A stretch of 64,000 nucleotides of DNA from Planctomycetota bacterium (GTDB lineage Bacteria > JAJVIF01 > JAPKYR01): contig JAUWTM010000001.1 in NCBI GenBank assembly GCA_030614715.1, positions 29,661 to 93,660 of the forward strand, written 5' to 3'. The first letter of the stretch is position 1; every line of letters starts with the position of its first letter. A model generated the notes under the pieces. That model saw only the letters and a program-made list of their open reading frames with translations. It did no database searches and had not been told where the DNA came from. This document shows, one piece after another, positions 26,313 through 63,341 of the stretch. Made by a program: the position numbers and the translations under genes.

Positions 26313-27731
26313 TTACTCTTCCTCCTCAACTGCTTCTCCCTCCCGTGAAGCATCCCCAATCCACGGTATCATCCTTCGCGCGCTCTCCTTCGACAGCAAT
26401 CCTGCCTCGACCTGCTTTACCAGCGTCTTCGTCAGAAGTGCGACATCCTCCGGTACGATCGGCGGGAAACTGACCTCAACAGTCTTGTCAACATCTCTCG
26501 GAAGCACTCCCGCACTGACTGCTGACTCGATTACCCGTCCGAATATCTTCCGGAATACTCCCTCGAACAATCGCTGACGGTCCTCGAACTTTTTGACCAT
26601 CGGAAGTTCCATCGACCTTGTCGTTGCGAGGTTTCCCGTGGACGGATCACCAAAATAGTGTTCGAAAATTCCCGATCCAGCTGCGATCATCAGCTTGATC
26701 GCCCGACCGTCCTCTTTCGCGTCATCCGCTCCAATTGACGGTGACAGCACGTCCCATTCCTCGCTCTCATGAACGACCAGGATACTTCCCGACTTCGGAA
26801 CTACATACTTCCCGCTTGAATCTGTCTGGAACGGGCCTGACGCCTTCGACGGTACAGTCGGGACCTTCCTCAGGAACGCAAACGTCCCTCGTGCCTTGTT
26901 AATGTTTATCCGGTCTTCCAACCAGCGCTCATGGGCATCCAGCCATGGAAGCACCCTGTAGAGCTCCGACAGTCCACGCTTTCGATTCGAAACATTATTT
27001 ACTTTCACATGAAGTATCTCGCTGGAATCGATTACCTCGTGGACTGTTTCGGAATCCAGCGGGTAAACAGCCGAATTTCCCTGGCTTTTGTAGGAATCGA
27101 TCCATTCCGACGGAACCGCTCGATTTCGGTACTCGCGCAGGTACGCGACAGGTTTACGGATATCGTCAGGGTCGGTCACGATATCCCTGATCTCGAGCGG
27201 ATCGACCATAGCCATCCGCACCGAACCATCAACCGGATTCGTGAAGAACCTGATGAAAATTTCACCGTAGATCTGGAGCTCATTGGACATCCAGTGCTGG
27301 GCAGCAGACAGATCGTTCTCGACGTGATTCCAGAACGTGTTGAGTATATCCTGGACTCGTGAATCCCTTGCGGAGTAACCGACGCCTTTTCCCATGACGA
27401 ACCATGTGGTGATATTTACGATCTGACCGGCAAGAGGGCTGCGGCACCACGCGGCATATGCACGCCGAAGTATCGATGCATGACCCTCGGAATCAAGGTC
27501 ATCGCCGGCAGCGACATCCCTCGAAATATTGCGCCAGTCCCAGCGGCTGGACGGACCATAATCACCTGCAAGCTCAGCTCCTTCCAGGGGGTGATAGCTC
27601 TCCACGATGCGATCATTCACTATTGCGTCCCGGACACGTCTGAGAAACGGCGGGACAAGCATACCGACCAGTTCTTTCAGGCCCATTAAACTCTCCAAAT
27701 ACGATTTTAGAATCAGCACATACCCTTCCAC
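26313..27731 (-). CDS. Putative phage portal protein
   Basis: 472 aa, the first gene of the cluster, with size and position typical of a portal directly upstream of protease/scaffold. The listed start is GTG. The ATG at 27686 (MGLKELVG...) is preceded by GGAGAG and is an alternative start. Confidence 0.6.
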   Translation of the reverse strand: MEGYVLILKSYLESLMGLKELVGMLVPPFLRRVRDAIVNDRIVESYHPLEGAELAGDYGPSSRWDWRNISRDVAAGDDLDSEGHASILRRAYAAWCRSPLAGQIVNITTWFVMGKGVGYSARDSRVQDILNTFWNHVENDLSAAQHWMSNELQIYGEIFIRFFTNPVDGSVRMAMVDPLEIRDIVTDPDDIRKPVAYLREYRNRAVPSEWIDSYKSQGNSAVYPLDSETVHEVIDSSEILHVKVNNVSNRKRGLSELYRVLPWLDAHERWLEDRININKARGTFAFLRKVPTVPSKASGPFQTDSSGKYVVPKSGSILVVHESEEWDVLSPSIGADDAKEDGRAIKLMIAAGSGIFEHYFGDPSTGNLATTRSMELPMVKKFEDRQRLFEGVFRKIFGRVIESAVSAGVLPRDVDKTVEVSFPPIVPEDVALLTKTLVKQVEAGLLSKESARRMIPWIGDASREGEAVEEEE

Positions 27732-43598: not shown

Positions 43599-43788
43599 TC
43601 TACGAAATCAGTATACCATCACTGAATAACTAGTTGACGACACCAGGAGGACCATAAAAATTTGCTTGGGAATATTGCGGTATTGCAGTTCATATACTAC
43701 AATTTCAATTATTCCTAGTATTTACATCAATTGATGCGAGTCGGTATTCGAGGCAGCTTTACAATCAATATACAAGGTGGAAGATGCT

Positions 43789-46452
43789 ATGCGTCTCAGA
43801 CTATTCCCGCTATTGGTAATATTAGCCGGTATATTCGGTATCTTTAGTTGCACAGGTGGAGATTCACCTGTCACACCGGCGAATGAAGAATTGGTCCTGC
43901 AGAATTCAGCGACATCTGCAAACACACATCTATGGGGACTCTACGACTGCTGGATCGATGTCGAGACTGAAGAGGTTAAAGTAATACCGCTCAGAACCGC
44001 GATGTTCGCGTGCAACGTAACAAGCTTTGTCGACGGACCACCGTCAAACCTGATTATTGATATCAACTCTATCGACACTCAATCCGGCACAACGGACATC
44101 TCAGTCGATGTGGGACTCAGGCATCCTTTCCCGGGACTCAACATGTATACGGGCTTTGATGTAATCGGCGTTTTTATGGGAACCTATACGGACCTGTATC
44201 CGGGTCCGATTCAGTGGACAGTAACAGATCACAATGGGCAGCATATGCTTAATCCGGATGGGTACACAAGGTGGTTCAACAGGCTTGAATTCGGATCGGT
44301 CCCGTTGCCGTTACTGGGTTATACACCGGGTGTGCTGGGAAGTCCCGGCACTAGCTCCCCATCGATCGAAGACTTTCCGCCTGAGGCCAACGCTGATGAG
44401 GCGCTTGTTATCGATATCGTGGACTACAGCACCGTTTACATCATTAACCCGGCGGACTTCGGCGGTGAAGTACGACTGGAGCTGACAGTCTGGGACTGGT
44501 CGGCTGAGACATCGGGTGTGATGGGTGAATACGTGATCCGCTGTTATTCAGAAGCATGGTGGTTTGGTGGTGGAGTGGACATGACCCCCATCGCGAGTTC
44601 CGATCACTGCTACACATACCTGACGGAGATACCTGTCCAGTCGATTGAATCCACTGCTCCGTTGACCGTATGGATCGAAGTCAATTATCCACAACTCGAT
44701 TACTCCAATGAATTTGGGATTGAAAACGATGCTCAAGGTGAGCTTTGCAGTTATTTCATGACTGAGGTTGAGGTCTCCACGGAACCGCCGTCATATATCG
44801 AAGTTCTCACGCCGAACGGTGGCGAGGAATGGGACGTCGGGGCAACCGAGGACATCACGTGGGACTCTGAGTATATTACGGGAACAGTGTTCATTGAGTA
44901 CTCGAAAGACGGCTTCGTGTCTGATATCCATACGATCGCTGTCGATGAAGACAACGACGGATCATACACGTGGGACATTCCCTGCGATGAATCCGATGCA
45001 GTTCGCGCTCGGGTAACATCAACCGATGACCCGTTGGTTACTGATACTTCCGATGGCGATTTCGCGATTGTCGGTGCTGGATGGGCCGGAACTTGGGGTG
45101 GAATCAGCCTCGATGCAAGCTACGAAACAGCGACCGATGAATCGGGGAGCGTGTACGTTACGGGTGAATTCAGGTATACGGTTGATTTCGATCCGGGTCC
45201 GGGGATTGACGAACATTCCGCTCTCGGCAGTAGTGATTCATTCCTGTCAAAATTCAATTCGTGTGGTGAGTTTGTATGGGCGTTGACATGGGGCGTGGCC
45301 GGTGGGAACGGCTGGGGAAATGGCGTATCGTGCGATAATGCTGGAAACGTGATTGTCATGGGCACTTTCAGGGGAGCGAATTGCGACTTCGATCCCGGTC
45401 CGGGTACCGATTATCACTCGACAACTGGCATGTACGATTGTTACCTGAGTAAATTCAACTCCGATGGCGACCTGTTATGGTGCAGGACTTGGGGCGGTAC
45501 ATACTATGAATCGAGCGGGTCGCCGCAGATCGACGGTTCGGACAACATCTACGTTATGGGTGGATTCAGATCAAGTTCGGTGGACTTCGACCCGGGTTCG
45601 GGAACAGACTGGCGGTTTAACGCCGGTGGCGACGACTGCTGGTTGAGTAAGTTTAATTCATCCGGAGAATTCCAGTGGGTCAGGACATGGGGTGCAGGGG
45701 GCTGGGACACGGCATACGACGGAGCTGCAGATTCGTCGGGGAATGTTTACGTAGCCGGACGGTTCCAGGGGACTGTTGATTTCGACCCGGGATCCGGAAC
45801 TGATAATCATACGGCTGTCGACTACGATCTCTTCCTGACTAAATTCGACACTAACGGCACTCACGAATGGGCCGCAACGTGGGACGGTATTGCGGGCTGG
45901 AACAGCGGTGCGACTGTCGCTCTTAACGGCACCAACGTGTACTGTGGCGGATATTTCATAGGTACAGTTGACTTTGATCCCGGAGTGGGAACGGATTATC
46001 ACACCTCTGCCGGGAACAACGACTGCTTCGTGAGCCGGTTCAATGTATCCGGTATTTTCCAGGAGGTTGCCGTGTGGGGAGGCACGGGTAATGATGTAGT
46101 TAACGGTCTCGCGATAGATAGCGTAGGTAACGTGCTGGTATGCGGTCAGTTCTTCGATTTCGCGGACTTCGACCCGGGAACGGGAACGGAGAATCGTACG
46201 TCCAACGGGTACTACGATATCTTCCTCAGCAAGCTTGATTCGTCGCTCGAGTATATCTGGGTTCAGACATGGGGCGGCAGCCAGAGTGATTACGGCGCCG
46301 ATTGTGCTGTTGGACCGGGTGACGTCGTGTACTCAACCGGATTTTTCAATGCCACGGTCGATTTCGATCCCGGACCCACCGTTGAAGATTGGACATCTAA
46401 CGGTAGTGCCGATGTTTATATCGTTAAAGTGATGGACGACGGGGAGTGGTAG
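43789..46452 (+). CDS. Secreted lipoprotein: family N-module (shorter variant) + SBBP-type beta-propeller repeats
   Basis: The ATG at 43789 follows AAGGTGG. Lipobox IFSCTG. N-module motifs HLWGLYD, RHPFPGLNMYTGFDVIGV, NPDGYTRWFN, VWDWS. The C-terminal half has about 8 repeats of DFDPGxGTD....D.(F/Y)LSKFN..G...W..TWGG. Confidence 0.85.
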   Translation: MRLRLFPLLVILAGIFGIFSCTGGDSPVTPANEELVLQNSATSANTHLWGLYDCWIDVETEEVKVIPLRTAMFACNVTSFVDGPPSNLIIDINSIDTQSGTTDISVDVGLRHPFPGLNMYTGFDVIGVFMGTYTDLYPGPIQWTVTDHNGQHMLNPDGYTRWFNRLEFGSVPLPLLGYTPGVLGSPGTSSPSIEDFPPEANADEALVIDIVDYSTVYIINPADFGGEVRLELTVWDWSAETSGVMGEYVIRCYSEAWWFGGGVDMTPIASSDHCYTYLTEIPVQSIESTAPLTVWIEVNYPQLDYSNEFGIENDAQGELCSYFMTEVEVSTEPPSYIEVLTPNGGEEWDVGATEDITWDSEYITGTVFIEYSKDGFVSDIHTIAVDEDNDGSYTWDIPCDESDAVRARVTSTDDPLVTDTSDGDFAIVGAGWAGTWGGISLDASYETATDESGSVYVTGEFRYTVDFDPGPGIDEHSALGSSDSFLSKFNSCGEFVWALTWGVAGGNGWGNGVSCDNAGNVIVMGTFRGANCDFDPGPGTDYHSTTGMYDCYLSKFNSDGDLLWCRTWGGTYYESSGSPQIDGSDNIYVMGGFRSSSVDFDPGSGTDWRFNAGGDDCWLSKFNSSGEFQWVRTWGAGGWDTAYDGAADSSGNVYVAGRFQGTVDFDPGSGTDNHTAVDYDLFLTKFDTNGTHEWAATWDGIAGWNSGATVALNGTNVYCGGYFIGTVDFDPGVGTDYHTSAGNNDCFVSRFNVSGIFQEVAVWGGTGNDVVNGLAIDSVGNVLVCGQFFDFADFDPGTGTENRTSNGYYDIFLSKLDSSLEYIWVQTWGGSQSDYGADCAVGPGDVVYSTGFFNATVDFDPGPTVEDWTSNGSADVYIVKVMDDGEW

Positions 46453-47463: not shown

Positions 47464-49737
47464 TTACCAATGGCCCCAGGCTACCCGAAGGTCATTAAGA
47501 CCGTCAGGACCAAGGTAAACGATTAACGGACGGTCCATCGAATCGAGTGCCAGAGCGATTTTTGCCCTGTCGAAGGAAGGTGCAACAAACTGGTCGTGCC
47601 AGCCGCCTTCATCCCTGTAGATATATGAAACACCATCATCATGGTTGTCCTTGTACGCGATGTGGGGTTGTCCATGTGAGTCAGTCCTGATATCCAGCTC
47701 GTCCAGAAAATTTATTGAACCGATCGCGGCACCAGGCACGATTGTTGATGTCATCCAGTTTAATTCACTACCATGCGAGAACTTGAGTCCGGGATCGTCG
47801 TAATATGTAACATACATTTCACCGGAAAGCCCGGCAGAGATTCTTGGGCATGTAACAGGCGATGCATAGATCACATGCATTTGCCAGGTTCCAGTTGTGT
47901 TGTACCAAACAGTCAGATTATTGACCGCCCATGGCTCTGTTGACACGATGTAAGGATTGCCAAAGGAGTCGAACGCAAAATCCATGCAGTTGTCGCCAAC
48001 AAGAGGTCCTACAGCTTCCTTTTCCCAGTCACCGGGCTGACCATACGCGAACCACAACGTATCGTCGTCAATGTTGAACGAAACCCCGTAATTTGTTCCG
48101 TCGTGATCGATTACGTTGAAATACCCGCCGCAGTAGGATGTATCTATCTCAGAGTAGTTCCAGTCCAGTGAGATGTGGTCGCGTATATTTATGACGCTGT
48201 CGCGATTCGCACCGTTCCAGTGGATGTTCGGCCAAACAGCAGCGAGGTTCCAGTCGGGATCGAAGCACATGCGGATCGAGCAGTGCGCACCCGTGTCTCC
48301 GTAACCGAACGGTGTGTCGTGATCCCAATCGATTCCGTTCCATGCATAAAAATGATACATGGCCCCGCCGTCCGCAGATGATACTGCCACAATCGGATTA
48401 TCGTCCTGGTCGAAAATACCGTTTGTCATCCAGATATCGTGCGGGTGGCCAAGGTTGATATGATCCCATGCGTAATTCACCTTTATTGGTACGTCGTATA
48501 TGTAATACGCTGCGAGATGTCCCTCGGGATAATCGATACCGCTTATTCCGGGAATCTGGGGTTCGTACGTTGCTGGATGAACCGAATTAACCGTGACCAG
48601 CAGCAGTTGATTGTTGAGGCCTGATGGGGTTACGTCTGGAATGTTAATATCGTACCTGCGCCTGGTTACGTTAACCGGGACCATATATCCATTTGCTGGA
48701 TCCAGGTAAATCGGACCCTGAAAAAGGGTCGGTGATTCAATTTTTATGGACTCGATCTCTTCGGTAGCTGCGATACTCATACCGTATAATTGCCAGTCAT
48801 AGATATCCAGCTTCAGATCCAGATCACCACCGTAATGCGATTGATCAAAGAACCACGCACTGCAACCAGTATCGATTACATCAAGCTTATATGCTTCCGG
48901 CATGTTTGCACTTATGGGAAAATGTTGAGGTAAATTGGGATTTTCAATGTCTTCGTAAGGTTGAGCCCATGACGCGCTTACTGCGTACTTGAAGTTAAAT
49001 ACGGGCGAACTATCTTCGACTTGGAATTGCAGTTCGTACCTTCGCTTGTTATTTGCGTTATTGTACGATGAAAAAAATCCGCGGTTGTTGATATTTACGA
49101 AAAAATCATCCTCGGCTGATAAACCATCGCAGAAGTACTTGAATGCATTAAGAGTATGCGTGCTCGTGAAATTCGGATTGGCTCTCGCACCCTCGATGTA
49201 TCCGAGCAGAGTTCCGTACGTTGTGAACTCGACCTGGTTCCACCATCTGGTCCATCCATCGGGATTTTGAAGGAGTGTGTTCGGTTGAATACTTGAGATT
49301 ATCGATGGATCTGTCGCCCACGGAACGCCATCGTGATCGTCCATTACGATACCCATCACGTCGAACCCGCAGAATATCGATCCAGGGAACGGGTGGTTGA
49401 GCGTAACATCGACATTGACCAGTCCAGATGGAAAGTCGGACGTGCCTGCATCGATGTTAATCGTCAGCATATGGATCGGTGATTGAGGTGGCTGGAGATG
49501 GTTGACAACATTCGCCTGAAAGTTGAGCGCCCTGAGCGGCACGATTTCCAGCGTTTCGTTCTCCGGATCGATGTAGACGTCCCACAATCCCCAGATCGTG
49601 CGATGATTTCCGACCTGATTAATTGAGTGAATATCCGGGGTACTGATATCAGGTGATACAGGGATTTGGGATTTACTGCATGAGCCAAAGGATACTGCAA
49701 CGATGGTCAGCAGGATGATCAGCTTGACACGGTGCAT
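47464..49737 (-). CDS. Secreted lipoprotein: family N-module + a distinct Trp/Asp-rich repeat (propeller-like) C-terminal domain
   Basis: Lipobox SFGSCS, with RBS GGGAGGG. N-module motifs IWGLWD, NHPFPGSIFCGFDVMGI, NPDGWTRWWN, FKYFCD, KRRYELQF, KYAVSASW, IYDWQ. Confidence 0.85.
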   Translation of the reverse strand: MHRVKLIILLTIVAVSFGSCSKSQIPVSPDISTPDIHSINQVGNHRTIWGLWDVYIDPENETLEIVPLRALNFQANVVNHLQPPQSPIHMLTINIDAGTSDFPSGLVNVDVTLNHPFPGSIFCGFDVMGIVMDDHDGVPWATDPSIISSIQPNTLLQNPDGWTRWWNQVEFTTYGTLLGYIEGARANPNFTSTHTLNAFKYFCDGLSAEDDFFVNINNRGFFSSYNNANNKRRYELQFQVEDSSPVFNFKYAVSASWAQPYEDIENPNLPQHFPISANMPEAYKLDVIDTGCSAWFFDQSHYGGDLDLKLDIYDWQLYGMSIAATEEIESIKIESPTLFQGPIYLDPANGYMVPVNVTRRRYDINIPDVTPSGLNNQLLLVTVNSVHPATYEPQIPGISGIDYPEGHLAAYYIYDVPIKVNYAWDHINLGHPHDIWMTNGIFDQDDNPIVAVSSADGGAMYHFYAWNGIDWDHDTPFGYGDTGAHCSIRMCFDPDWNLAAVWPNIHWNGANRDSVINIRDHISLDWNYSEIDTSYCGGYFNVIDHDGTNYGVSFNIDDDTLWFAYGQPGDWEKEAVGPLVGDNCMDFAFDSFGNPYIVSTEPWAVNNLTVWYNTTGTWQMHVIYASPVTCPRISAGLSGEMYVTYYDDPGLKFSHGSELNWMTSTIVPGAAIGSINFLDELDIRTDSHGQPHIAYKDNHDDGVSYIYRDEGGWHDQFVAPSFDRAKIALALDSMDRPLIVYLGPDGLNDLRVAWGHW

Positions 49738-49887
49738 AGTAAACCCTCCCTACTAATGCTAAACTTAATTATACCTGAATCAAGGTATGGTAATCAAGAC
49801 CCATTCATATAAAATGTAATGATTTTTGGGTATGGGTCCCTGATACGATATACTTGTAGTCGATCTGATCAAGCCGGAGGCCAACTT

Positions 49888-51804
49888 ATGCGGTCAAGAA
49901 TGTACTCGGTAGTCCTGTGCGGATTCGTGATGCTCCTGTTAATGAGCTGCTCAGGGGGTGAGCCGACCTCACCAGCCATTGAAAGACCGGCTGAATCCGG
50001 TTCTGCCCAGTCCGGACATCATCTTTGGGGACTCTGGGATTTCGTTTACGATCCCGACTCAAACTCAATCGATACACTCCCTCTGAGGACCGCTGAATTC
50101 AACGCGAACGTCGTCAGGTTCCTCCAGCCGCCATCATCCCCCATCCACCTCCTTACCGTAACCATCAACAGCGGTAGCGACCCCGTTAACGGCTACCTCG
50201 TCCTCGACATCAGCCTCCGTCACCCGTTCATCGGCGTCAACCTGTTCCGAGGATTCGATGTAAGGGGCATTATCATGTCCGAGGGCGGATCAATCGGCAT
50301 CCACGATCCTGAAATCAGCTACTTCCAGCCGACCGGTACGAGGGTTCTCAACCCCGATGGATACTCCCGCTGGTGGAATTACCAGGAATTTACATCCTAC
50401 GGTACCATCCTTGGTTACACCGACGGTGCTAAGACAACCCCGGGATTCGAGCCGGACGCAACGTTAAACCCGTACAAGGTTTTCAGCGACTCACTCGACG
50501 AGGAAGCGCCCATCTATTCGATGGATTTCGACCAGCGCGCGACTTTCGGGACATACCCGGGATTCAACACGCGACGGTACCGGATCCAGTTCAATATTAA
50601 TGGTGATCCTCCGTTCAGGTTCAAATATGCAATCGACGCGTCATGGTCGATGCCCGATCCTGCCTTCGAACCGGATTATCCTGTCGAGGCGTACGACCTC
50701 TCCGCGAACTGCCAGGAGCCGTATTTACTGAGAGTCCCGCTATTCGAGGATCGTCCATACTACGAGGACCCGTCCACCTACGGCGGTGACGCTGTTTTCC
50801 TCCTGACTATCGGCGACTGGCAGGTTGATTCGGGTGAAACCGTCCTCGACCAGCTGACACACATCTGGGTCGAGTCCCCAACGCTCATCGATAGCCCGAT
50901 GGATGTGATTTCATCCGCTGAATTTGTCAGCTCGATTCATCACACCCAGGCTACTTACAGAATAACCATCCCGAACTGCCATCCGACTGGTCTGGAAGGC
51001 CAGAAATTCCTGATCACCGCTGAAAGTGCGGATCCTGACACGTACGCACCTCAGATCGATGGTGATCCGAACCTTTTCGACTGGCCGGAAGCACCGCTTG
51101 CTGCATTTACAGTTGTCGATGTGCCCATCGATCCGGAGGGTCCGGTTGAGCCTGAGGAATATTATGTCGTGGGCCTTCCCGACTGGTGCGCATTGACCGA
51201 GCACTGCACGACTGGTGTCGATAACCTGCAATTGATCACGAACCTGATCGAGTGGGATCTCGATGGCCCTTACAACGATGAAATGACCGTCAAATGGTGG
51301 GGAGGCCATGTAATCCCGACCGCTCCGTACTCAACATCGGTGATTCAGACACACGTGCAGTCGCTTGGGTACACTTTTGTACGCTCACAGGAACCCGCTT
51401 TCGATCCCGCCGGATGCCGCATGATCATCGTGAATTTCGTCAGGAGCGGATTGGCACAGTACACACCGTTTACCGGACAGGAGATCCACGACATGAAGGA
51501 CTTCGTGTTCCACGGCGGTGTGCTCTGTTTCCTTATCGAAAATACGAACTACTTCGATCCGGTCGAGTTCGAACCGCTCATGGACGCACTTAGTGTGCCC
51601 CTGACTTACGGCGGTCCGGCTGAGCCACCCTCAACTGATACCCAGACAACCGACATCACCGATCATCTTCTGACAACGGGTGTAAATACGTTCCAGTACT
51701 GGACCTGCGGCGAGTTCCTACTCGAAAGCGAGGACTGCATATCACTCGTCCGCAGCCCAACCGGTGAGCATTTAGTGGTCCTTGCACCGATTGATCTCGG
51801 TTAG
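49888..51804 (+). CDS. Secreted lipoprotein: family N-module + a ~200-aa unrelated C-terminal domain
   Basis: The ATG at 49888 follows GGAGG and gives MRSRMYSVVLCGFVMLLLMSCSGG. Motifs HLWGLWD, RHPFIGVNLFRGFDVRGI, NPDGYSRWWN, NPYKVFSD, TRRYRIQF, KYAIDASW, IGDWQ. It is divergently arranged with the 47464..49737 paralog. Confidence 0.85.
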   Translation: MRSRMYSVVLCGFVMLLLMSCSGGEPTSPAIERPAESGSAQSGHHLWGLWDFVYDPDSNSIDTLPLRTAEFNANVVRFLQPPSSPIHLLTVTINSGSDPVNGYLVLDISLRHPFIGVNLFRGFDVRGIIMSEGGSIGIHDPEISYFQPTGTRVLNPDGYSRWWNYQEFTSYGTILGYTDGAKTTPGFEPDATLNPYKVFSDSLDEEAPIYSMDFDQRATFGTYPGFNTRRYRIQFNINGDPPFRFKYAIDASWSMPDPAFEPDYPVEAYDLSANCQEPYLLRVPLFEDRPYYEDPSTYGGDAVFLLTIGDWQVDSGETVLDQLTHIWVESPTLIDSPMDVISSAEFVSSIHHTQATYRITIPNCHPTGLEGQKFLITAESADPDTYAPQIDGDPNLFDWPEAPLAAFTVVDVPIDPEGPVEPEEYYVVGLPDWCALTEHCTTGVDNLQLITNLIEWDLDGPYNDEMTVKWWGGHVIPTAPYSTSVIQTHVQSLGYTFVRSQEPAFDPAGCRMIIVNFVRSGLAQYTPFTGQEIHDMKDFVFHGGVLCFLIENTNYFDPVEFEPLMDALSVPLTYGGPAEPPSTDTQTTDITDHLLTTGVNTFQYWTCGEFLLESEDCISLVRSPTGEHLVVLAPIDLG

Positions 51805-55920: not shown

Positions 55921-58875
55921 ATGAATCGGTGTTTACTTTGTTTACTGGCAGGACTGTGTGCAGGACTTATTCTTATCGGGTGTTCCGGGGGTGCCGATCC
56001 TGTCATCCCTGCTGAAAATCCGGATCCTGAACTGACACGCGATACTGTCTCGTCCGTATCCCATACACATCTCTGGGGTCTCTACGATGTTTATGTAGAT
56101 ATTGAGGAAATGGAAGTCACAGCTCTGCCGAGCCGAAGCGTGATGTTCACCTCAAATGTCGTGAATTTCATCAACAATAATCCCTCAAACCTGTCTTTTC
56201 ACATAAATGACGTGGAAACCACTCCGGACTGGATCGGCATCTATACCAGCATCACAGTCGGCCACCCCTTCCCCGGATTCCCCCAATACAACGGGTACGA
56301 TGTTCGCGGGATCTTCATGGGTAACGGTTCCGCTTCGATGGCCTACAACCCCGATCTCGTCTACCCTGTCAAGGGAACCGACCAGATGGTCCTTCCCAAT
56401 CATTGGAACGGCCTCGGCTATCCGGACGGTTACACGCGCTGGTTCAACTATTCGGAATTTTCAGAGGGTGGGATGCCACTGTTCCAGTACACTCAGGGTC
56501 ACTTCGCGACATCCGGGTTCTCAGGCTCCGCAACCCTCAATCCGTACGTGTATTTCGCGGACGGCCTTGATAAGTACGATTATCTGTTCGAGTGGCTCGA
56601 CTCTCACCCCGGCCAGCACGGCCAGTTCGCATCCGGCTCGTTGAACTCACGATATTACTACCTTCGATTCCCCCACACCGATGGTATCTATTACGGCTAC
56701 GCGATCATCGCCGACTGGGGGGGCATTGAACCGGAATTTCACCCGTCGAACGCACCTGAAGCAGTCGCGTGCAGGGTCGACGATAACAGCAATGTCTATT
56801 ACGTGAGCCCGACGGACAATGGCGGGAATCTGGTCCTCGATATCAGCGTCTGGGACTGGGATTCATCCGTGGAAAGCGTAGTCATGGAGGACTACCGGGT
56901 ATTTATCGAATCGACCGTCCTGAGTGGAGTGTATGAATTCGATTCTTCCGACATGACCCCGGTCGATGGCAGCGAAAATTACTCAACCTACCACGTGGAG
57001 ATACCGGCGGATGACGTCACCGGTGTCGATGACAACGAATACTGGGTGATTGTCGAACAGCAGGGACTCGATTACACGAACGATTTCGGGACTCCCAATC
57101 TCGCCGGTACGGATACCCTTGCAGCCTTCTTCCGCTACGATCTCGATGTTTCAGATAATCCCGGGAATACACCCCCGGTAATCATCGATATCACTGACGA
57201 TATCGAGCCCGACGGCCTGAATACTGCACTGACCGACGAGGACATCGCTGTCACTTACATCGTTGACTTCACCGATCCTGACACGGGTCAGACACACACG
57301 ATCGACTGGTACATCGAGAACTCTGGAACCGGTGCTCCGACCGATCCACCGGACGCAATGCCCTATGACTGGTCGCTCAAGGAAATTGGTGATTATGAGA
57401 TCTGGGTAAAGGTCGATGACGGCTACGGTGCTGTGCTCGGAGGTCCGTGGGTGGTCAGCAAGGCAGTCTACGGATGGGTCCGTACGTGGGGAGCAGGTAA
57501 CCAGGACCGTGGTTACGGCGTTGTTGTGGACAGCCAGGGCTATATCTATGTAGCGGGGAATTTCTACAGCACTGTGGACTTCGACCCCGGTCCGGGAACT
57601 GAGGAATATAACTCCGGTGGCAACAGGGACTCTTTCGTCAGCAAGTTCGACTCCGCAGGAAACTTCTACTGGGCACGAACGTGGGGAGGCAGCGAATCGT
57701 TTGGTGGCGGTGCGAGCGATATCACTGTCGACAGCAGCGACAACGTGATAATTTCCGGATATTTCTTCGGCACGGACGTCGATTTCGATCCCGACCCGGC
57801 TGGTGATGACCTTCATACTTCGGTTGGGTCGCAGGACGCTTATGTGACGGTCTTTGATCCCGATGGAGATCACCTGTGGGCAAATACCTGGGGCGGGACC
57901 CACGAATACGGTGATAACTGCATGGGTGTCGACGTCGATTCGTTCGACAACATATACGTTGCTGGCCAGTTCCTCGATACGGTGGACTTTGACCCCGATC
58001 CTGTCGATACCGATCCTCACACAGCGGTCGGATATTACGATTTTTACGTGTCCAGTTTCGACTCGACCGGAGATTTCCGGTGGGCAAACACATTCGGCGG
58101 TGACCTGTACGATTTCGCGTTCGGTTGCGAGGTCGACAGCCTTAACAATGTCTGTGTCGCGGGACGGTTCAACAACCTTCTCGATTTCGACCCGGGTCCG
58201 GGCGATGAAACTCACGATGAGGACGCCGAGGGCAACATGTACCTTGCGAAGTACGATTCGGACGGCGATTTCGTCTGGGTAAAGGTCTTTGGCAGAGGGG
58301 ACGCCTTCAGGATTGCGTTCGACAGCAATGACAACGTCTTCCTCTCAGGTGTCTGGGGCGGGGCATCTCAGTTCGATCCCGATAACCTGACTGAACTGCG
58401 GATCGCGAATGGTGCCCGTGACTGCTACCTGAGCAAATTCAGCTCAACGGGACTGTTCCAGTGGGTCCAGACGTGGGACTCGATCGCGATTACCGACATC
58501 ACATCTGGCTATATTGGCCATCATGTCACAATCGACAGCTCCGACAACATTTACACCACCGGACATTTCACCGGTACCGCGGACCTCGATCCGGATCCGG
58601 TGGATACAGACGATCACGTGTCGAACGGGCTTCGTGATACGTTTCTGAGCAGGTTTGATTCATCCGGAGACCTGGCATGGGCAAGGTCGTGGGGTGGAGA
58701 GTCCACAGACGACGGTGCGGGAATCGCGGTCGATAACGACAGCGGGAACATTTACGGTACCGGCTGGTTCTTCGGCACTGTCGATTTCAACCCCGGCCCG
58801 GACATCGAGGAGCGCACAGCATTAGGCTCACTCGACGCCTTCCTGATCCAGTTGAAACCGGATGGGTACTGGTGA
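55921..58875 (+). CDS. Secreted lipoprotein: family N-module + middle domain + SBBP-type beta-propeller repeats
   Basis: Lipobox LIGCSG. Motifs HLWGLYD, GHPFPGFPQYNGYDVRGI, YPDGYTRWFN, NPYVYFAD, SRYYYLRF, YGYAIIADW, VWDWDS. The C-terminal part has about 8 repeats of DFDP(G/D)P....D.(F/Y)(V/L)SKF...G...W..TWGG. Confidence 0.85.
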   Translation: MNRCLLCLLAGLCAGLILIGCSGGADPVIPAENPDPELTRDTVSSVSHTHLWGLYDVYVDIEEMEVTALPSRSVMFTSNVVNFINNNPSNLSFHINDVETTPDWIGIYTSITVGHPFPGFPQYNGYDVRGIFMGNGSASMAYNPDLVYPVKGTDQMVLPNHWNGLGYPDGYTRWFNYSEFSEGGMPLFQYTQGHFATSGFSGSATLNPYVYFADGLDKYDYLFEWLDSHPGQHGQFASGSLNSRYYYLRFPHTDGIYYGYAIIADWGGIEPEFHPSNAPEAVACRVDDNSNVYYVSPTDNGGNLVLDISVWDWDSSVESVVMEDYRVFIESTVLSGVYEFDSSDMTPVDGSENYSTYHVEIPADDVTGVDDNEYWVIVEQQGLDYTNDFGTPNLAGTDTLAAFFRYDLDVSDNPGNTPPVIIDITDDIEPDGLNTALTDEDIAVTYIVDFTDPDTGQTHTIDWYIENSGTGAPTDPPDAMPYDWSLKEIGDYEIWVKVDDGYGAVLGGPWVVSKAVYGWVRTWGAGNQDRGYGVVVDSQGYIYVAGNFYSTVDFDPGPGTEEYNSGGNRDSFVSKFDSAGNFYWARTWGGSESFGGGASDITVDSSDNVIISGYFFGTDVDFDPDPAGDDLHTSVGSQDAYVTVFDPDGDHLWANTWGGTHEYGDNCMGVDVDSFDNIYVAGQFLDTVDFDPDPVDTDPHTAVGYYDFYVSSFDSTGDFRWANTFGGDLYDFAFGCEVDSLNNVCVAGRFNNLLDFDPGPGDETHDEDAEGNMYLAKYDSDGDFVWVKVFGRGDAFRIAFDSNDNVFLSGVWGGASQFDPDNLTELRIANGARDCYLSKFSSTGLFQWVQTWDSIAITDITSGYIGHHVTIDSSDNIYTTGHFTGTADLDPDPVDTDDHVSNGLRDTFLSRFDSSGDLAWARSWGGESTDDGAGIAVDNDSGNIYGTGWFFGTVDFNPGPDIEERTALGSLDAFLIQLKPDGYW

Positions 58876-58889
58876 TTTTCGTCACGCTG

Positions 58890-59448
58890 ATCGCGCAACC
58901 TGGGAGCGGCTCACAATCAGGACGCTGATATCCTCGTGTTTCTGAACAATGACCGCTATGTGGATCCTGGGTGGCTGGATCCGATGGTGCAATGTATCAG
59001 CGACGGGCACACAATAGTCGGGGCACGTCTGCTGTATCCTGACGGTATGGTTCAGCATGCAGGTGGATGGCTCGGGCCAACATGGAACAATGTATTTCAC
59101 AGGTACCTCCATGACGTCCATCTAAAGGGTGACGATCCCAGGGTGTTAGAAAGTTGTGTTGTCTCCTGGGTTACAGGTGCGCTGTTAGCCATCCCGGCAT
59201 CTGATTTCAGGGAGCTTGGTGGGTTTGATACCGGTTTCAGGAACGGCGGTGAGGATGTCGACCTTTGCCTTAAAGCTCAACTGAAAAACAAGTCCGTGTA
59301 TTACTGTGCTGAAGCGACCGCGATACACGAGGAGGCCCAGACACCCGGACGTCACGATCACTTCACACCTAACACTGCTCGATTTCTTAAACGCTGGGGG
59401 AATACCGACATTAACAGATTCATACCGGATACCGATCAATCAGATTGA
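58890..59448 (+). pseudogene. 5'-truncated family-2 glycosyltransferase fragment
   Basis: The open frame begins right after an in-frame TGA at 58887-58889, 12 nt after the stop of the 984-aa gene. It encodes ...DADILVFLNNDRYVDPGWLDPMV...GARLLYPDGMVQHAGG...VTGALLAI...GFRNGGEDVDLCLK. That is the GT2 core from the DxD-proximal region onward. The N-terminal ~80-aa nucleotide-binding part is missing. Confidence 0.65.
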
Positions 59449-59875
59449 ATATATTGTGCTTTATGATATCGAGCCGAACAGACCACCACCGGGGACGTCC
59501 GCCTGGCACTCCAGGTTGTATCTCGTTAGGGATGTCGCAGATCGCGGTCATCTGGCCGATCCCCACGAACGCACCGACCGAGTTCCCGAGACCCGTAGAC
59601 GGATCATCGTACCCCACGCTCATCATCGAGGCTCCGTGATGATCATCACCCGGTGCCCCGAAGAAATCCTCGGGGGTCGGCTCGGGATTCGGCATCCTGG
59701 GATCGGAATCCCCCCACGGCGACCTGGGCCAGTTGCCCGTGTTCCACCACGACGAGCCGCGTCCGCCCTGCGGGATCAACATCTTCCCGCCGACCGTGTC
59801 ACTCGACGGCGCCGACGAGGTCTCGCCCGTGTCGTAATCGATTTGCTCCATGTGCTCCAGGAACATATCGATCAT
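59420..59875 (-). pseudogene. Truncated orphan copy of the conserved N-terminal region of the 419-aa toxin-like gene
   Basis: Residues ~55-130 of this 151-aa ORF (WGDSDPRMPNPEPTPEDFFGAPGDDHHGASMMSVGYDDPSTGLGNSVGAFVGIGQMTAICDIPNEIQPGVPGG) are nearly identical to the first 66 aa, plus the upstream 7 codons, of the 60548..61807 ORF. The ORF then diverges and ends after 25 aa. Its 3' end overlaps the GT2 fragment tail-to-tail by 29 nt. Confidence 0.5.
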
Positions 59876-59881
59876 CCCTTT

Positions 59882-60520
59882 TTATTCTTGAATTTCTATC
59901 TCACAGATTGCTAAAACTGCGAACGGAGAATGCTCTTCCACAAGTTCATCAGCTACACTCCTGAATTTCAAAGCATCCGCGTAGTTATTAAATAAATGAT
60001 ATTTATTAAGTTCGCCGCTTTCCTCTATAATTGTCCAGTCAATACCACAATTCGTTATCGCAGAAATCCATAAATTTGCATCTATTACATCAAATCCACG
60101 TAACTCGCCATACTCCTCTATGATGTAATTAAATGCATAGAGATATTTATAAAATGAGTATGCAGTTTCTACTCCATCATCAATGCTGCGAGTTCTTTTA
60201 AATTTTAAGATCCTCTCTAATTCAAGTGCCAATCCAAATATCGATGTTACTGGGAATTCCTTATCTAGACCTCCGTATACAACCTTCTTAATTCCCTCTA
60301 ATGAAGTGATCATTTCAAAAGGATGATCTCTTGGTTTGAGTTTTTCATCAGGAGCTATTCTTTCTAAAAATTCAGAATCAGGAGGATGAAGGAAATCCGC
60401 GGTAATAATATAGCAATCAGGTTTATGTTGACCTTGCAGATAGAACTCGTACCCTCGTACTGAGTAGCCGATAAAGATAAATTCATCAAGTACAGAAAAA
60501 ATTTTGCTATCCTTGCGCAT
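59882..60520 (-). CDS. Candidate immunity protein (AT-rich cytoplasmic protein downstream of the toxin-like gene)
   Basis: 212 aa with no signal peptide. Sampled 60-nt blocks are ~37% GC, versus 50-60% in flanking genes. It lies 27 nt downstream of the 419-aa ORF on the same strand. The function is inferred from context only. Confidence 0.5.
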   Translation of the reverse strand: MRKDSKIFSVLDEFIFIGYSVRGYEFYLQGQHKPDCYIITADFLHPPDSEFLERIAPDEKLKPRDHPFEMITSLEGIKKVVYGGLDKEFPVTSIFGLALELERILKFKRTRSIDDGVETAYSFYKYLYAFNYIIEEYGELRGFDVIDANLWISAITNCGIDWTIIEESGELNKYHLFNNYADALKFRSVADELVEEHSPFAVLAICEIEIQE

Positions 60521-60547
60521 TACTCCACTCCATGTGTATTTTAAGTC

Positions 60548-61807
60548 TTAATATCTCCATAATCCTTGATCTTGCAGATAACGAACGACTTCCATCATTT
60601 CATCCCACGTTACTGCCCAACCTTCATCCACCCACTTTCCTTTATACCATTCTTTACGATGTATATGAGGATTATCAATAAATTCCTGTAAGATTTTGTT
60701 AAAGTGCATGCTCCGTTCAGGATTTCTTACTAAATCTATAAATCTACCACCGGATAACGGCACTCTATTTTTTCCCCACAATCTTCGACACACCTTGGCT
60801 AGCCTTTGTAGAGTAACTACTGCAGGTGAAAAATTTGCAAATCCCCGCTCATTTTTCAACATTTTACTGCCACGTGCAAGCCATATACCGATTTTCCCGG
60901 ATTTTGCCAGGATACCGGCCAACTTGAATACCTTTGTCGCACCACCAAACACTAGCTCGCCAGCAAGGATGTGAACCGTGTCCCTCCAAAAATCTCTGAG
61001 GATATTAGCGGCTTCTAATTCCCACATGGCCGCTTCAGCACGGTATCCCGCTATCGTCTCCCTTGCAGCATCGAAATCAAATGGTTTCCCACTGGATTGG
61101 ATTGGATTCATAACACCATCACGAGCCCGGTATCCACCCCGATGAGCTTGGTGATTATAACTGGGATCGTCACCGCGCCAGTTTCCGCCGCCGCGCTGGT
61201 AGGAGTAGTACTCATCCCACGTCATGTTTTCCGTAGTAATGGGCTGTAGTCTTTCATCCCTGGCTCGTGCTGCTGCCTCCTCGTTGATGCCGGTCATTAC
61301 CATGCACCCGGCGTAAATGATGTCCTGTCCTGTTTTATGCCGCCAATGTTCTTCAATCCTGGCTTGAATATTGGCTTCGAGATCCGCAAGCGGGTCCGTT
61401 TCAGGAGGTGCGGTGCCCTCTATCGGACTCGGTACGGGGTTCGGCATAATGGGCGGTCCGCCAGCGATCGGATTACTCGGCATTCCCCCGCCCAGCCTGG
61501 GATCGAAATCTATCCACGGACGCGGCATTCCCGGATTTGTCGTGGGTTTTTCGGGCTTGTATCCGGGCATCGTGCCCCACGGAACGATTCCGTCTGGTCC
61601 GAACAGGCCTCCGCCGGGAACCCCGGGTTGGATTTCATTAGGAATATCGCAGATAGCGGTCATCTGACCGATCCCCACGAACGCACCGACCGAGTTCCCG
61701 AGTCCCGTCGACGGATCGTCATACCCCACACTCATCATCGAGGCTCCGTGATGATCATCACCCGGTGCCCCAAAGAAATCCTCGGGGGTCGGCTCGGGAT
61801 TCGGCAT
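60548..61807 (-). CDS. Candidate polymorphic-toxin-like protein: conserved Gly/Pro-rich N-region + AT-rich variable C-terminal domain
   Basis: 419 aa with no signal peptide. The N-terminal 66 aa are duplicated in the orphan ORF. Pro/Gly linkers are present (GGPPIMPNPVPSPIEGTAPPETDP). GC drops from ~60% (61000-61800) to ~33-47% (60548-60900). The RBS is weak, and homology to the orphan extends upstream of the ATG to a TAG stop. Confidence 0.55.
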   Translation of the reverse strand: MPNPEPTPEDFFGAPGDDHHGASMMSVGYDDPSTGLGNSVGAFVGIGQMTAICDIPNEIQPGVPGGGLFGPDGIVPWGTMPGYKPEKPTTNPGMPRPWIDFDPRLGGGMPSNPIAGGPPIMPNPVPSPIEGTAPPETDPLADLEANIQARIEEHWRHKTGQDIIYAGCMVMTGINEEAAARARDERLQPITTENMTWDEYYSYQRGGGNWRGDDPSYNHQAHRGGYRARDGVMNPIQSSGKPFDFDAARETIAGYRAEAAMWELEAANILRDFWRDTVHILAGELVFGGATKVFKLAGILAKSGKIGIWLARGSKMLKNERGFANFSPAVVTLQRLAKVCRRLWGKNRVPLSGGRFIDLVRNPERSMHFNKILQEFIDNPHIHRKEWYKGKWVDEGWAVTWDEMMEVVRYLQDQGLWRY

Positions 61808-61829
61808 CCTGGGATCGTAATCCCCCCAC
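61601..61829. repeat. ~230-bp direct repeat, partner at 59477..59717 (about 88-90% identity by eye)
   Basis: Both copies read (plus strand) GAACAG...ATCGCAGAT(C/A)GCGGTCATCTG(G/A)CCGATCCCCACGAACGCACCGACCGAGTTCCCGAG...CTCATCATCGAGGCTCCGTGATGATCATCACCCGGTGCCCC(G/A)AAGAAATCCTCGGGGGTCGGCTCGGGATTCGGCATCCTGGGATCG. Confidence 0.9.
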
Positions 61830-61853
61830 TACCAGGCCATTAATCACCTAATA

Positions 61854-63134
61854 TTAATCCCACGGTTCGTCCGACTTATCCAGTTCGAAACAGAACCATG
61901 CTGCAAGGTCCTCACCGACCATTTCGTTGGGAACACCGAACGGATTCGAGTAATCGTAGCCGGGATACCTGGGTATTACCCAGAAATCGTACGCATTATC
62001 TATCTGCAGAATCGCTGTGGGGATCTCGTGATGGAATATCGCGTAATTATCCCCGACTTCCATCGGCACCATATTAAATTCCTGCAGAAATGTACCGCCG
62101 GTCCCGTGATTGGAGACAATGACGAGATGCAGGATGTAATCATCCATGATCCCTGTGTCCAGGTCGACATCCGACAGGGGATCGATCACCTTGAACTCGA
62201 AAACGAAGTAATCCGGATGCTCGGTGGCGTATATTTTCTCGCACGCGATCGCCTCGCGCTGGTTCGACGGGTGAACGTCCGCGGCTTCCCAGTTCGCTGT
62301 CACCGAGTACGCAAATTCAACCGCTGTTTTTGAAAATCGCACGTAGTAATTGCGCGTGTTGGTCGCACCGGATGAAAACACACGGTCGGTGGTCGGGTTT
62401 GCATCGAGCCATTCAATAATTCCGTCGTGCACTCCGAGCCCGTCGGCAAACAACTTGTACGGATTGAGCACTGAAGCCCAGTAGTAGAATTCTGCGTACT
62501 TGTCAGATGCGAAAATCCCCTGCGTGTAACCGAACAGCCCTTCAGTAGTGAAGAACTTCGGATTGTACCACCGCGTGTAACCGTCAGGACCACCGCCGTC
62601 AAGGTTTACCGGATCGTCCATCATTTCCTGGCTGCCGGGATAACCCGGCTGACCATCGTAAAACGTTGATGGCTGGTAGTGCGGATACCCGTTGAATCCC
62701 ATGTTGACGCCGAAATCCGGGAAGCACGTCGCTCCCTCGTTGCCAATGAAAATTCCCCGGACATCGTAGACATTCAGGTGTGGTGCCCCGTAGATCGGGT
62801 GCGTTATGCTGACATCGAAATCGACATCCACGTAATCAACATCGGGGGTGAAATTGTTTACATGGATCGCAAGCGCAGATGGGTTGTTGTTCAGCATCTG
62901 AACAAGATTCATCGTGAACATTGCATGACGGTTTGGGGTAACCGAAATTGTCCCGGCTTGCGGATCGAGTACACACTCGTAGTATCCCCAGAGACGTGTC
63001 GAGTTTCGATGCAACAGCGACTGGTTACGTACAGCAGGATCAGGGGAAACAGGATTCTCTGCTCCCGAAGAGCAGGACATTGTAAACGCCGTGCAAATTA
63101 GACATAGAATTGCGATGAGATTGATGCGCGTCAT
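61854..63134 (-). CDS. Secreted lipoprotein consisting of the family N-module only
   Basis: The ATG at 63134 follows GGAGG and gives MTRINLIAILCLICTAFTMSCSSG. Motifs RLWGYYE, THPIYGAPHLNVYDVRGI, GPDGYTRWYN, NPYKLFADGLG, TRNYYVRF, FAYSVTANW. The ORF stops (..FELDKSDEPWD*) at the boundary where paralogs continue into their C-terminal domains. The track start at 63218 adds 28 non-signal residues. Confidence 0.8.
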   Translation of the reverse strand: MTRINLIAILCLICTAFTMSCSSGAENPVSPDPAVRNQSLLHRNSTRLWGYYECVLDPQAGTISVTPNRHAMFTMNLVQMLNNNPSALAIHVNNFTPDVDYVDVDFDVSITHPIYGAPHLNVYDVRGIFIGNEGATCFPDFGVNMGFNGYPHYQPSTFYDGQPGYPGSQEMMDDPVNLDGGGPDGYTRWYNPKFFTTEGLFGYTQGIFASDKYAEFYYWASVLNPYKLFADGLGVHDGIIEWLDANPTTDRVFSSGATNTRNYYVRFSKTAVEFAYSVTANWEAADVHPSNQREAIACEKIYATEHPDYFVFEFKVIDPLSDVDLDTGIMDDYILHLVIVSNHGTGGTFLQEFNMVPMEVGDNYAIFHHEIPTAILQIDNAYDFWVIPRYPGYDYSNPFGVPNEMVGEDLAAWFCFELDKSDEPWD

Positions 63135-63341
63135 GACACTCCTCCGATTACCGCTTAAATTCGTCGGATTTACTGCCTGATCTCCTGTCCCGGATTCATT
63201 ATAGCATAGCCGCAGCATGCGGTATCAACCGGTCTATATACCCTTGAATTTCCTTGCAGCTCTTCTCATCATATACATGATAATCGGGCGTGATAATAGC
63301 CATCGAAATGAATGGCAGACCAGTGAAAATTATCTAAAAAC

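Follow-up and report, generated by a model that had tools for sequence, protein, structure and literature searches.

The minus-strand locus at 59420-63134 of the window (the whole 64,000-nt stretch of contig JAUWTM010000001.1 from a Planctomycetota bacterium) is probably a polymorphic interbacterial toxin-immunity cassette of a family represented in no curated database, situated at the degraded edge of a tandem array. Its putative toxin is designated p419 (419 aa), and p212 (212 aa), encoded directly downstream, is the putative cognate immunity protein. Proteins of the family would be composed of three parts: a disordered Pro/Gly-rich N-region with a core around an invariant Cys, which may serve in delivery or import; a helical and hydrophobic pre-toxin segment, which may mediate passage through a membrane; and an exchangeable C-terminal toxin tip. 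The gene directly downstream would encode the cognate immunity protein, and here the acidic p212 would bind and neutralise the basic 93-residue tip of p419. The AT-rich tip and immunity cassette of about 1 kb would have entered by horizontal transfer and been fused to the backbone through recombination within the conserved region, and two 220-nt repeats at the locus would represent the type of homology on which such arrays recombine. Toxicity, neutralisation, the route of export and import, and the expression of p419 are deduced from sequence only.

Four minus-strand open reading frames (ORFs) make up the locus, with intergenic gaps of exactly 46, 27 and 6 nt in the ORF listing; both the coordinates and the spacers of the four-part gene order given in a preliminary description of the stretch were reproduced. 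The features, all but one on the minus strand, are:

61854..63134, minus strand: module-only lipoprotein, 426 aa, with the ORF open back to 63218
61808..61853, minus strand: 46-nt spacer with the 5' breakpoint of p419; in-frame TAG at 61829-61831, then W-G-D-Y-D-P-R codons
61610..61829, minus strand: direct repeat copy R1, at the start of p419
60548..61807, minus strand: p419, putative polymorphic toxin, 419 aa, intact ORF without signal peptide
61427..61768, minus strand: conserved family N-region of p419, residues 14-127, with invariant Cys53
60830..61240, minus strand: middle "pre-toxin" region of p419, residues 190-326, ending ...KNERGF
60548..60829, minus strand: variable C-terminal tip of p419, residues 327-419 and stop codon, putative toxin domain
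59882..60520, minus strand: p212, putative cognate immunity protein, 212 aa
59880..60900, no strand assigned: AT-rich cassette of toxin tip and immunity gene, GC about 0.35
59420..59875, minus strand: 151-aa ORF, what is left of the following family gene, N-module then core
59498..59717, minus strand: direct repeat copy R2, within the 151-aa ORF

The region of about 59880-60900 is the sole AT-rich island of the window, with GC of 0.35 versus 0.52 overall. Inside p419, GC content at third codon positions (GC3) drops from about 0.6 to 0.3 near residue 300, close to residue 326, at which homology to the relative P0003 ends. The AT-rich end of p419 and the AT-rich p212 gene pointed out in the preliminary description are both borne out by these values. 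The same arrangement is present in NCBI metagenome-assembled contig JAIWCF010000019.1 (GCA_048633415.1), with 99.98% identity.

In an exhaustive HMMER search of 1.84 billion representatives (E<1e-3), 37 relatives of p419 were found, including P0004, which is the window's own 148-aa orphan product. All 37 match the N-region of p419 (approximately residues 14-127), and four match further, namely P0003 to residue 326, P0006 to 272, P0007 to 227, and P0005 to 211. None of the 37 matches residues 327-419. When the last 120 residues of the 26 members with a C-terminus were compared, they fell into 18 unrelated tip clusters. It had been proposed earlier that the locus is of polymorphic-toxin type, with a conserved N-region, a variable foreign tip and a linked downstream gene changing with the tip, and that the conserved segment should be searched for fusions to numerous distinct C-termini with a different gene behind each; both are what the family presents. 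The proteins are about 420-590 aa long, and no Pfam or NCBIfam model matches the N-region of the 38 members. Word-indexed protein searches with p419 and p212 returned the queries only, which for p419 is an artefact of its low-complexity N-region, and a scan of GTDB genomes gave only two loci, L005 and L006, with family gene fragments. A giant Rhs-like main gene of which the family N-region would be just the tail is unlikely, as no relative exceeds 590 aa, the length of the largest member, although assembly breaks at repeats could hide one. A further upstream module, LHYGY..GDNxWWDWGF...SYxxDSWD, is present in some members (L028 14166-14459; N-terminus of P0037), which makes the longest gene form and the N-terminus assigned to the family provisional.

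Family sequence was recorded in 19 loci (L002-L004, L005-L006, L007-L018, L027/L028), and their gene maps cover 13 pairs of a toxin and its downstream gene. Family genes with GC of 0.45-0.63 stand in tandem, and the next gene is of low GC (0.29-0.49), within about 100 nt or with slight overlap. The GC step of the window recurs twice in tandem in L028 and is also present in all other arrays. Similar tips are paired with similar downstream proteins (44% and 54% identity in L004/L015, 56% and 61% in L010/L016), and different tips are followed by mostly unrelated ones. There are two exceptions to this co-variation: a group of TPR membrane proteins encoded after hydrophobic tips, and the downstream proteins of P0023 and P0031, which are related though the tips did not cluster. 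Domains of known toxin and immunity families were recognised in the sister loci. A DUF1963 immunity gene is above the cut-off (E 1e-11), Imm11 is represented by one precomputed match and by one of 21.8 bits, just under the cut-off of 22.1, and Imm32 by a weak, precomputed match. Of the tips, one matches DUF2380 with an EAHHIFP motif (AHH-like) at 29.1 bits, above the gathering score, and two match DUF4258 over the full length, at sub-threshold E values of 2e-4 and 0.059. The AHH-like tip is followed by an Imm11-like gene, a combination that agrees with the link between Tox-AHH and Imm11 in the tables of Zhang et al. 2012 (PMC3482391). Direct DNA repeats across the conserved region, 145-747 nt long and 81-95% identical, were found in every other array examined. 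The family has been seen only in uncultivated bacteria from metagenomes. One host (L027/L028) carries LpxK, KdtA-like and KdsB-like genes for lipopolysaccharide (LPS) biosynthesis and is therefore a diderm with LPS.

Protein p419 has an N-region of residues 1-138 that is acidic and contains 38% Pro+Gly. Its first 40 residues include seven acidic and no basic ones, and no hydrophobic run fit for a signal peptide. The family core has the pattern GYxNPxYGLGDxxGGxFxGxGxxxxxCNIPNExQPxxPPGGLFGPD...PGY, where the Cys (Cys53 of p419) and several Pro and Gly residues are invariant. An internal lipobox at the invariant Cys is not supported, for a basic n-region is missing and the sequence does not fit the strict lipobox pattern. 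A second shared module, TTxxMSWDEYYSYQKGGxNWGG...H(T)GG, lies in the middle region that p419 has in common with P0003, P0005, P0006 and P0007; it is followed by a long helix (residues 245-287) and by an amphipathic or hydrophobic stretch before the tip, and a hydrophobic segment occurs in the pre-toxin region of every relative. The tip is 93 residues long (327-419), basic with an isoelectric point (pI) of 9.7, and predicted to be helical. AlphaFold2 on the single sequence was useless, with a predicted local distance difference test score (pLDDT) of 38. With an alignment of 38 sequences the mean pLDDT rose to 55: only the helix 245-287 is confident (pLDDT 85-94), the tip is moderate (67-80), and the N-region stays low, its first 135 residues or so being predicted disordered. 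Foldseek of this model against PDB gave only coiled-coil noise (E>1).

Protein p212 is acidic (pI 4.7), has neither a signal peptide nor a transmembrane segment, and is preceded by a strong ribosome-binding site (RBS), GGAGTGGAG. The basic pI of the tip and the acidic pI of p212 were counted for toxin-immunity pairing. Only one homologue of p212 was found, a 5'-partial ORF at L011 1-483 with 35% identity over 80 aa (46.6 bits); between its stop and the following family copy lie 14 nt, so that it stands in the slot that p212 occupies in the window. Based on this position, p212 is the putative cognate immunity protein, and it would neutralise by binding. No credible match of p419 or p212 was obtained in Pfam, NCBIfam, PADLOC, PHROGs or PDB sequences, and tblastn of the p419 tip and p212 against plasmids gave noise only (E>1). 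Matches to DNAJC11 and to a Tad2-like protein in domain searches with p419 and p212 were sub-threshold and due to chance. The tip and p212 are both novel, and the toxicity of the tip is putative.

The start of p419 and the 151-aa ORF downstream of p212 share a 220-nt direct repeat (59498-59717 and 61610-61829). The copies are 92% identical, far beyond chance, and comprise 66 codons together with the 22 nt that precede the p419 ATG. The shared codons differ at 17 sites, all of them third-position synonymous changes (proportion of synonymous differences, pS, 0.37; of non-synonymous differences, pN, 0; P about 2e-11 if neutral), which means that both copies have diverged as coding sequence under purifying selection and do not represent a fresh duplication. 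The preliminary description was right that the downstream ORF repeats the start of p419, but its length of about 73 codons is reached only if seven codons before the ATG are counted. Past an indel and a frameshift, homology of the 151-aa ORF to p419 reaches approximately residue 70. The 60 residues preceding the repeat in this ORF are found elsewhere in the family too and represent a further conserved module, with the general pattern (G)MIDxFLExMEQ...GKMxxP...W. This family N-module occupies the first 50 residues or so of the 151-aa ORF, in the form (G)MIDMFLEHMEQIDYDTG...GKMLIPQGG...W, and lies 5' of the core also in P0023, P0026, P0031, P0034, P0036, P0037, L003, L010, L014 and L015. In the remnant, N-module homology (59729-59878; versus P0023, P0037, L003, L010 and L014) starts at 59878, right after the p212 stop, while that of the relatives extends further upstream (...MQRSxDAD..FYTL...); at the other side there is a frameshift near 59497, and homology ends at about 59473. 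The remnant is therefore cut on its 5' side, and the frameshift cuts it after the core.

A breakpoint is also visible in the 46-nt spacer upstream of p419. Its W-G-D-Y-D-P-R codons match the translated SPWGDSDPR of the downstream copy, and by eye this stretch resembles PWGxGG(L/I/V)DPGF of the relatives. The TAG at 61829-61831 closes the coding homology at the upstream edge of the repeat. Because coding homology continues in frame 5' of the p419 ATG, the present ATG is internal to an ancestral ORF. Judged by these alignments, p419 is a 5'-truncated copy in which the complete tip and immunity cassette is retained and the family N-module lost, and the 151-aa ORF is the stump of the next array member. 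Comparable stumps stand at the array end in L010/L017, where a 242-aa copy is followed by unrelated genes, and in L028, where 97 aa from the far N-terminal part are encoded after the second immunity gene. The partial copy that had been called an orphan of the Rhs/CDI type is thus real, but it is not a classical orphan; like those in L010/L017 and L028, it is what has survived of the 5' part of the following tandem gene.

Several points weigh against the reading as a toxin-immunity cassette. Protein p419 lacks the family N-terminal module, has an in-frame stop upstream and a weak RBS, and may be silent or non-exported. No signal peptide, secretion system or lysis gene was found in the scanned genes. 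Neither a fold nor a family can be recognised for the p419 tip and p212, and toxicity of the tip is deduced from position. The DUF4258 assignments and one of the Imm11 assignments in the sister loci fall under the Pfam thresholds, and the sister contigs are mostly short, with full arrays and neighbours poorly sampled.

Some of these points are shared with the possibility, doubtful yet the best of the alternatives, that the locus is a dead relic. The array would then have decayed at both ends, p419 would be an unexpressed 5'-truncated pseudogene, and only p212, which has its own strong RBS, might still be useful, as an orphan immunity gene that guards against toxins of neighbouring cells. Such decay is suggested by the coding homology that runs 22 nt 5' of the p419 ATG and is shut by TAG, by the weak RBS of p419, by the downstream copy cut at both ends and frameshifted, and by the adjacent family-2 glycosyltransferase gene, which is a fragment too. 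That gene reads in the opposite direction:

58936..59448, plus strand: family-2 glycosyltransferase fragment, C-terminal half only (PF13632, E 7.5e-8; NCBIfam MftF positions 160-282 of 467)

Since only the C-terminal half is present, this edge of the locus is rearranged. Against a relic, the ORFs of 419 and 212 codons are both intact, and the absence of non-synonymous differences (dN=0) in the repeat speaks against long neutral decay. Short forms starting just before the core are also common in the family (P0003, P0012, P0018, P0019, P0024, P0027, P0029), and P0018 is the first gene of its L028 array, directly after a housekeeping gene, that of methylmalonyl-CoA mutase. The frequency of such forms, P0003 and P0018 among them, suggests that the short form may function and that 5' truncation need not mean lost function. 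The glycosyltransferase fragment begins 60 nt past the stop of a 984-aa lipoprotein gene and overlaps the end of the toxin remnant; an intact similar gene adjoins a degenerate family copy at L009 3-755 (minus strand).

The cassette reading was compared with the known systems. It shares with polymorphic toxins in general (Zhang et al. 2012, PMC3482391; review by Jamet & Nassif 2015, PMC4436062) a conserved N-terminal backbone with exchangeable C-terminal tips and an immunity gene directly downstream, AT-rich foreign cassettes, tandem arrays with truncated copies, and repeats permitting recombination, as well as Imm11, Imm32 and DUF1963 genes and AHH/DUF2380-like and DUF4258-like tips in the sister loci. 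Unlike them, the p419-family backbone matches no trafficking or pre-toxin domain in Pfam or NCBIfam, and its proteins are short (about 420-590 aa), without signal peptide and without repeats. Motif scans together with Pfam and NCBIfam revealed no recognisable secretion or trafficking domain in the N-region of p419 or the 38 members, and the earlier remark that no known pre-toxin motif or domain is present agrees with this. Of the markers of type VI and type VII secretion systems, PAAR, MIX-type, LXG and WXG were absent in the same searches, and no secretion apparatus genes are in the gene lists of the examined part of the window, L001-L004 and L027/L028. In Rhs and CDI systems cassettes are exchanged by homologous recombination, and both orphan modules and silent copies can become active through recombination or duplication (PMC3150448, PMC3967940). 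Recombination on a conserved segment beside the tip and the presence of orphan modules are the likenesses to the p419 family, which differs in having no RHS/YD repeats, PxxxxDPxGL, VENN, TPS or FHA, a backbone about ten times smaller, and arrays of near-complete genes with variable 5' truncation. For Rhs, neither a Pfam RHS match nor PxxxxDPxGL was found; for CDI, there is no Pfam domain, no VENN, and no cdiB-like gene in any locus map. Read from its sequences, the p419 family has the logic of Rhs, CDI and Maf-type toxins, yet it lacks the markers by which membership in each of them is recognised.

For the delivery step a serious alternative is release by lysis or in vesicles, followed by import, as in colicins and S-type pyocins, with the Pro/Gly-rich N-region serving in import by commandeering proteins of the target cell's envelope; as an explanation of the whole locus it is unlikely. 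Nuclease colicins have a conserved N-terminal part, a variable cytotoxic C-terminus, and an acidic immunity gene directly downstream. The locus resembles them and the S-type pyocins in this layout, in the absence of a signal peptide and of a known secretion marker, in the disordered Gly/Pro-rich N-terminus (about 135 residues in p419), in the basic tip, and in the small acidic downstream protein, and one family host is a diderm with LPS genes. However, no colicin or pyocin domain was found by Pfam, and no lysis gene either. Every member has a hydrophobic pre-toxin segment, which is absent from nuclease colicins, and a chromosomal arrangement in tandem, truncated copies included, fits CDI, Rhs and Maf loci better.

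A more far-reaching and rather improbable proposal is that the family constitutes a new delivery route in LPS-bearing uncultivated bacteria, the signal-less N-region with its C(N/D)IPNExQP..PPGGLFGPD core being a new export or import module, and that the layout in the window is maybe a silent cassette. The permuted order, a truncated core with tip and immunity gene followed by an N-module with core, may be such a silent form. Unequal recombination or duplication between the 220-nt repeats would rebuild a full-length gene of N-module, core and tip beside the immunity gene. It would act as a recombinational ON switch, of which one was selected in Salmonella orphan Rhs loci (PMC3967940).

The preliminary description also proposed the lipoprotein encoded upstream of p419 as a putative new carrier module; the distribution of both families speaks against this. 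The lipoprotein ORF 61854-63218 has 454 aa, and an inner ATG at 63134 gives 426 aa, which is the favoured start because the orthologues are 422-427 aa long. Its signal peptide with Cys is MTRINLIAILCLICTAFTMSC. The protein ends ...FELDKSDEPWD, where the paralogues 55921-58875 and 43777-46452 run on into Ig-like and SBBP propeller parts (SBBP by Pfam and NCBIfam); alignment supports the earlier observation that the stop lies exactly at the end of the N-module of the paralogues. This lipoprotein N-module, scanned alone, has no Pfam or NCBIfam match. With the 426-aa query, seven relatives at 48-68% identity and longer paralogue-like proteins were found: P0042-P0047 are 422-427 aa long (48-57% identity, 99-100% coverage), and P0041 is a 355-aa partial (68%). 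The closest relative, in L023, ends ...FELDQSNENWK at the same stop position. With stop and length shared by the orthologues, the module-only lipoprotein is a conserved subfamily, and its truncation by insertion of the cassette is ruled out. At least seven N-module paralogues are present in the window:

1466-2230, minus strand: lipoprotein N-module paralogue
2345-5824, minus strand: lipoprotein N-module paralogue
43777-46452, plus strand: lipoprotein N-module paralogue
47464-49737, minus strand: lipoprotein N-module paralogue
49819-51804, plus strand: lipoprotein N-module paralogue
55921-58875, plus strand: lipoprotein N-module paralogue
61854-63218, minus strand: lipoprotein N-module paralogue, upstream of p419

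Several of them are fused to SBBP beta-propellers, and together they form a large lineage-specific expansion of surface proteins. With so many paralogues in 64 kb, chance adjacency of the lipoprotein and p419 is plausible.

A precedent for a carrier, or an outer-membrane export partner, is given by the Neisseria Maf islands, which contain a mafA lipoprotein, a mafB toxin, a mafI immunity gene, and orphan mafB-CT cassettes (PMC4287609, PMC7738311). MafA is required for the export of MafB (PMC7738311). The order of lipoprotein, toxin, immunity gene and partial toxin copy is superficially identical here, with the lipoprotein gene 46 nt upstream of p419 on the same strand and moderate-size toxins with variable C-termini, and P0003, the closest relative of p419, also lies 34 nt after a lipoprotein gene, although that one encodes an SBBP propeller without the N-module. 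Nevertheless, such a role of the lipoprotein is very improbable. No family toxin was found near the module-only orthologues in six contexts at eight loci (core hidden Markov model; BLAST with 38 family proteins), where unrelated and often convergent genes follow. The 17 other toxin loci (L002-L018) are all devoid of N-module genes; SBBP proteins alone occur, in L002 and L006, and an in-frame fusion of N-module and toxin was not seen. Besides the abundance of the lipoprotein family, the junction between the lipoprotein and p419 is a truncation scar. MafB has a signal peptide, on which its secretion depends (PMC4287609), and a DUF1020 N-domain and needs MafA, whereas p419 has neither a signal peptide nor a Pfam match, so that the Maf analogy fails on this point; the lipoprotein has no Pfam match either. 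Adjacency of lipoprotein and toxin is not conserved in either direction, and Maf orphans retain the C-terminal tip, whereas the partial copy of the window retains the N-terminal part. On this distribution the lipoprotein is best described as an independent conserved neighbour, outside the toxin system.

An intracellular toxin-antitoxin or abortive-infection module instead of an interbacterial weapon is highly unlikely, for despite the two-gene layout of toxin and neutraliser on an AT-rich island and a phage portal gene elsewhere in the window, there is no PADLOC or PHROGs match, such a module has no use for a long, conserved and disordered N-region or for a hydrophobic pre-toxin segment, the toxin gene precedes the neutraliser, tips are swapped on a common backbone, and the sister loci carry the interbacterial-type immunity families Imm11, Imm32 and DUF1963. 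The portal gene (26313-27731, minus strand) encodes an SPP1-type phage portal protein (PF05133, E 5.6e-14) and hints that the 14-30 kb part of the window contains a prophage or what is left of a phage; the large ORFs near it, 16010-18394 and 27894-30233, had no Pfam match.

Further observations were made in the sister arrays. The downstream proteins of L010 1845-3104, L013 1511-2749, L014 1514-2575 and L016 1152-2411 are related to each other (24-61% pairwise). The first is a TPR protein by Pfam, and all four have, by sequence reading, an N-terminal signal-like segment and a C-terminal transmembrane helix. The genes of this group follow family toxins with strongly hydrophobic C-terminal regions, and this combination suggests membrane-acting tips with membrane-anchored immunity proteins. 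In L002, the immunity position behind a 484-aa family toxin with the tip type of P0024 and P0025 is taken by a 476-aa SBBP-propeller lipoprotein (2395-3825), whose gene is directly upstream of P0003; this lipoprotein may be an immunity protein against an envelope-acting tip. Two core fragments in L006 (5516-5878 and 9302-9436) flank about 3.4 kb with 323-aa, 89-aa and 613-aa genes of unassigned function, as if an island had been inserted into a family gene or had recombined with it. At L010 4090-4740 and L017 320-970 the array ends, and beyond it come two small paired genes and then, on the opposite strand, two larger ones. Judged only from their translations, the pair looks DUF433-like/PIN-like and the larger genes look ParB/ParA-like; if the reading as partition genes is right, a replication origin may be close to this array, or a mobile replicon may carry it.

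Polymorphic toxins shape how members of microbial communities compete, and almost all of their known families are defined by an N-terminal delivery module, which tells the secretion system. What is familiar in the p419 family is its logic, and the principle is unsurprising; new are the backbone, p212 and the tip of p419, and the copy in the window is partly decayed. A tempting inference was corrected, as the adjacent lipoprotein is not the carrier. With a backbone absent from Pfam and NCBIfam, and with no signal peptide or known secretion marker, the family is a candidate new delivery module. Its arrays display the exchange of cassettes on a short backbone and would be a source of many new toxin/immunity pairs, including the uncharacterised p419 tip with p212.

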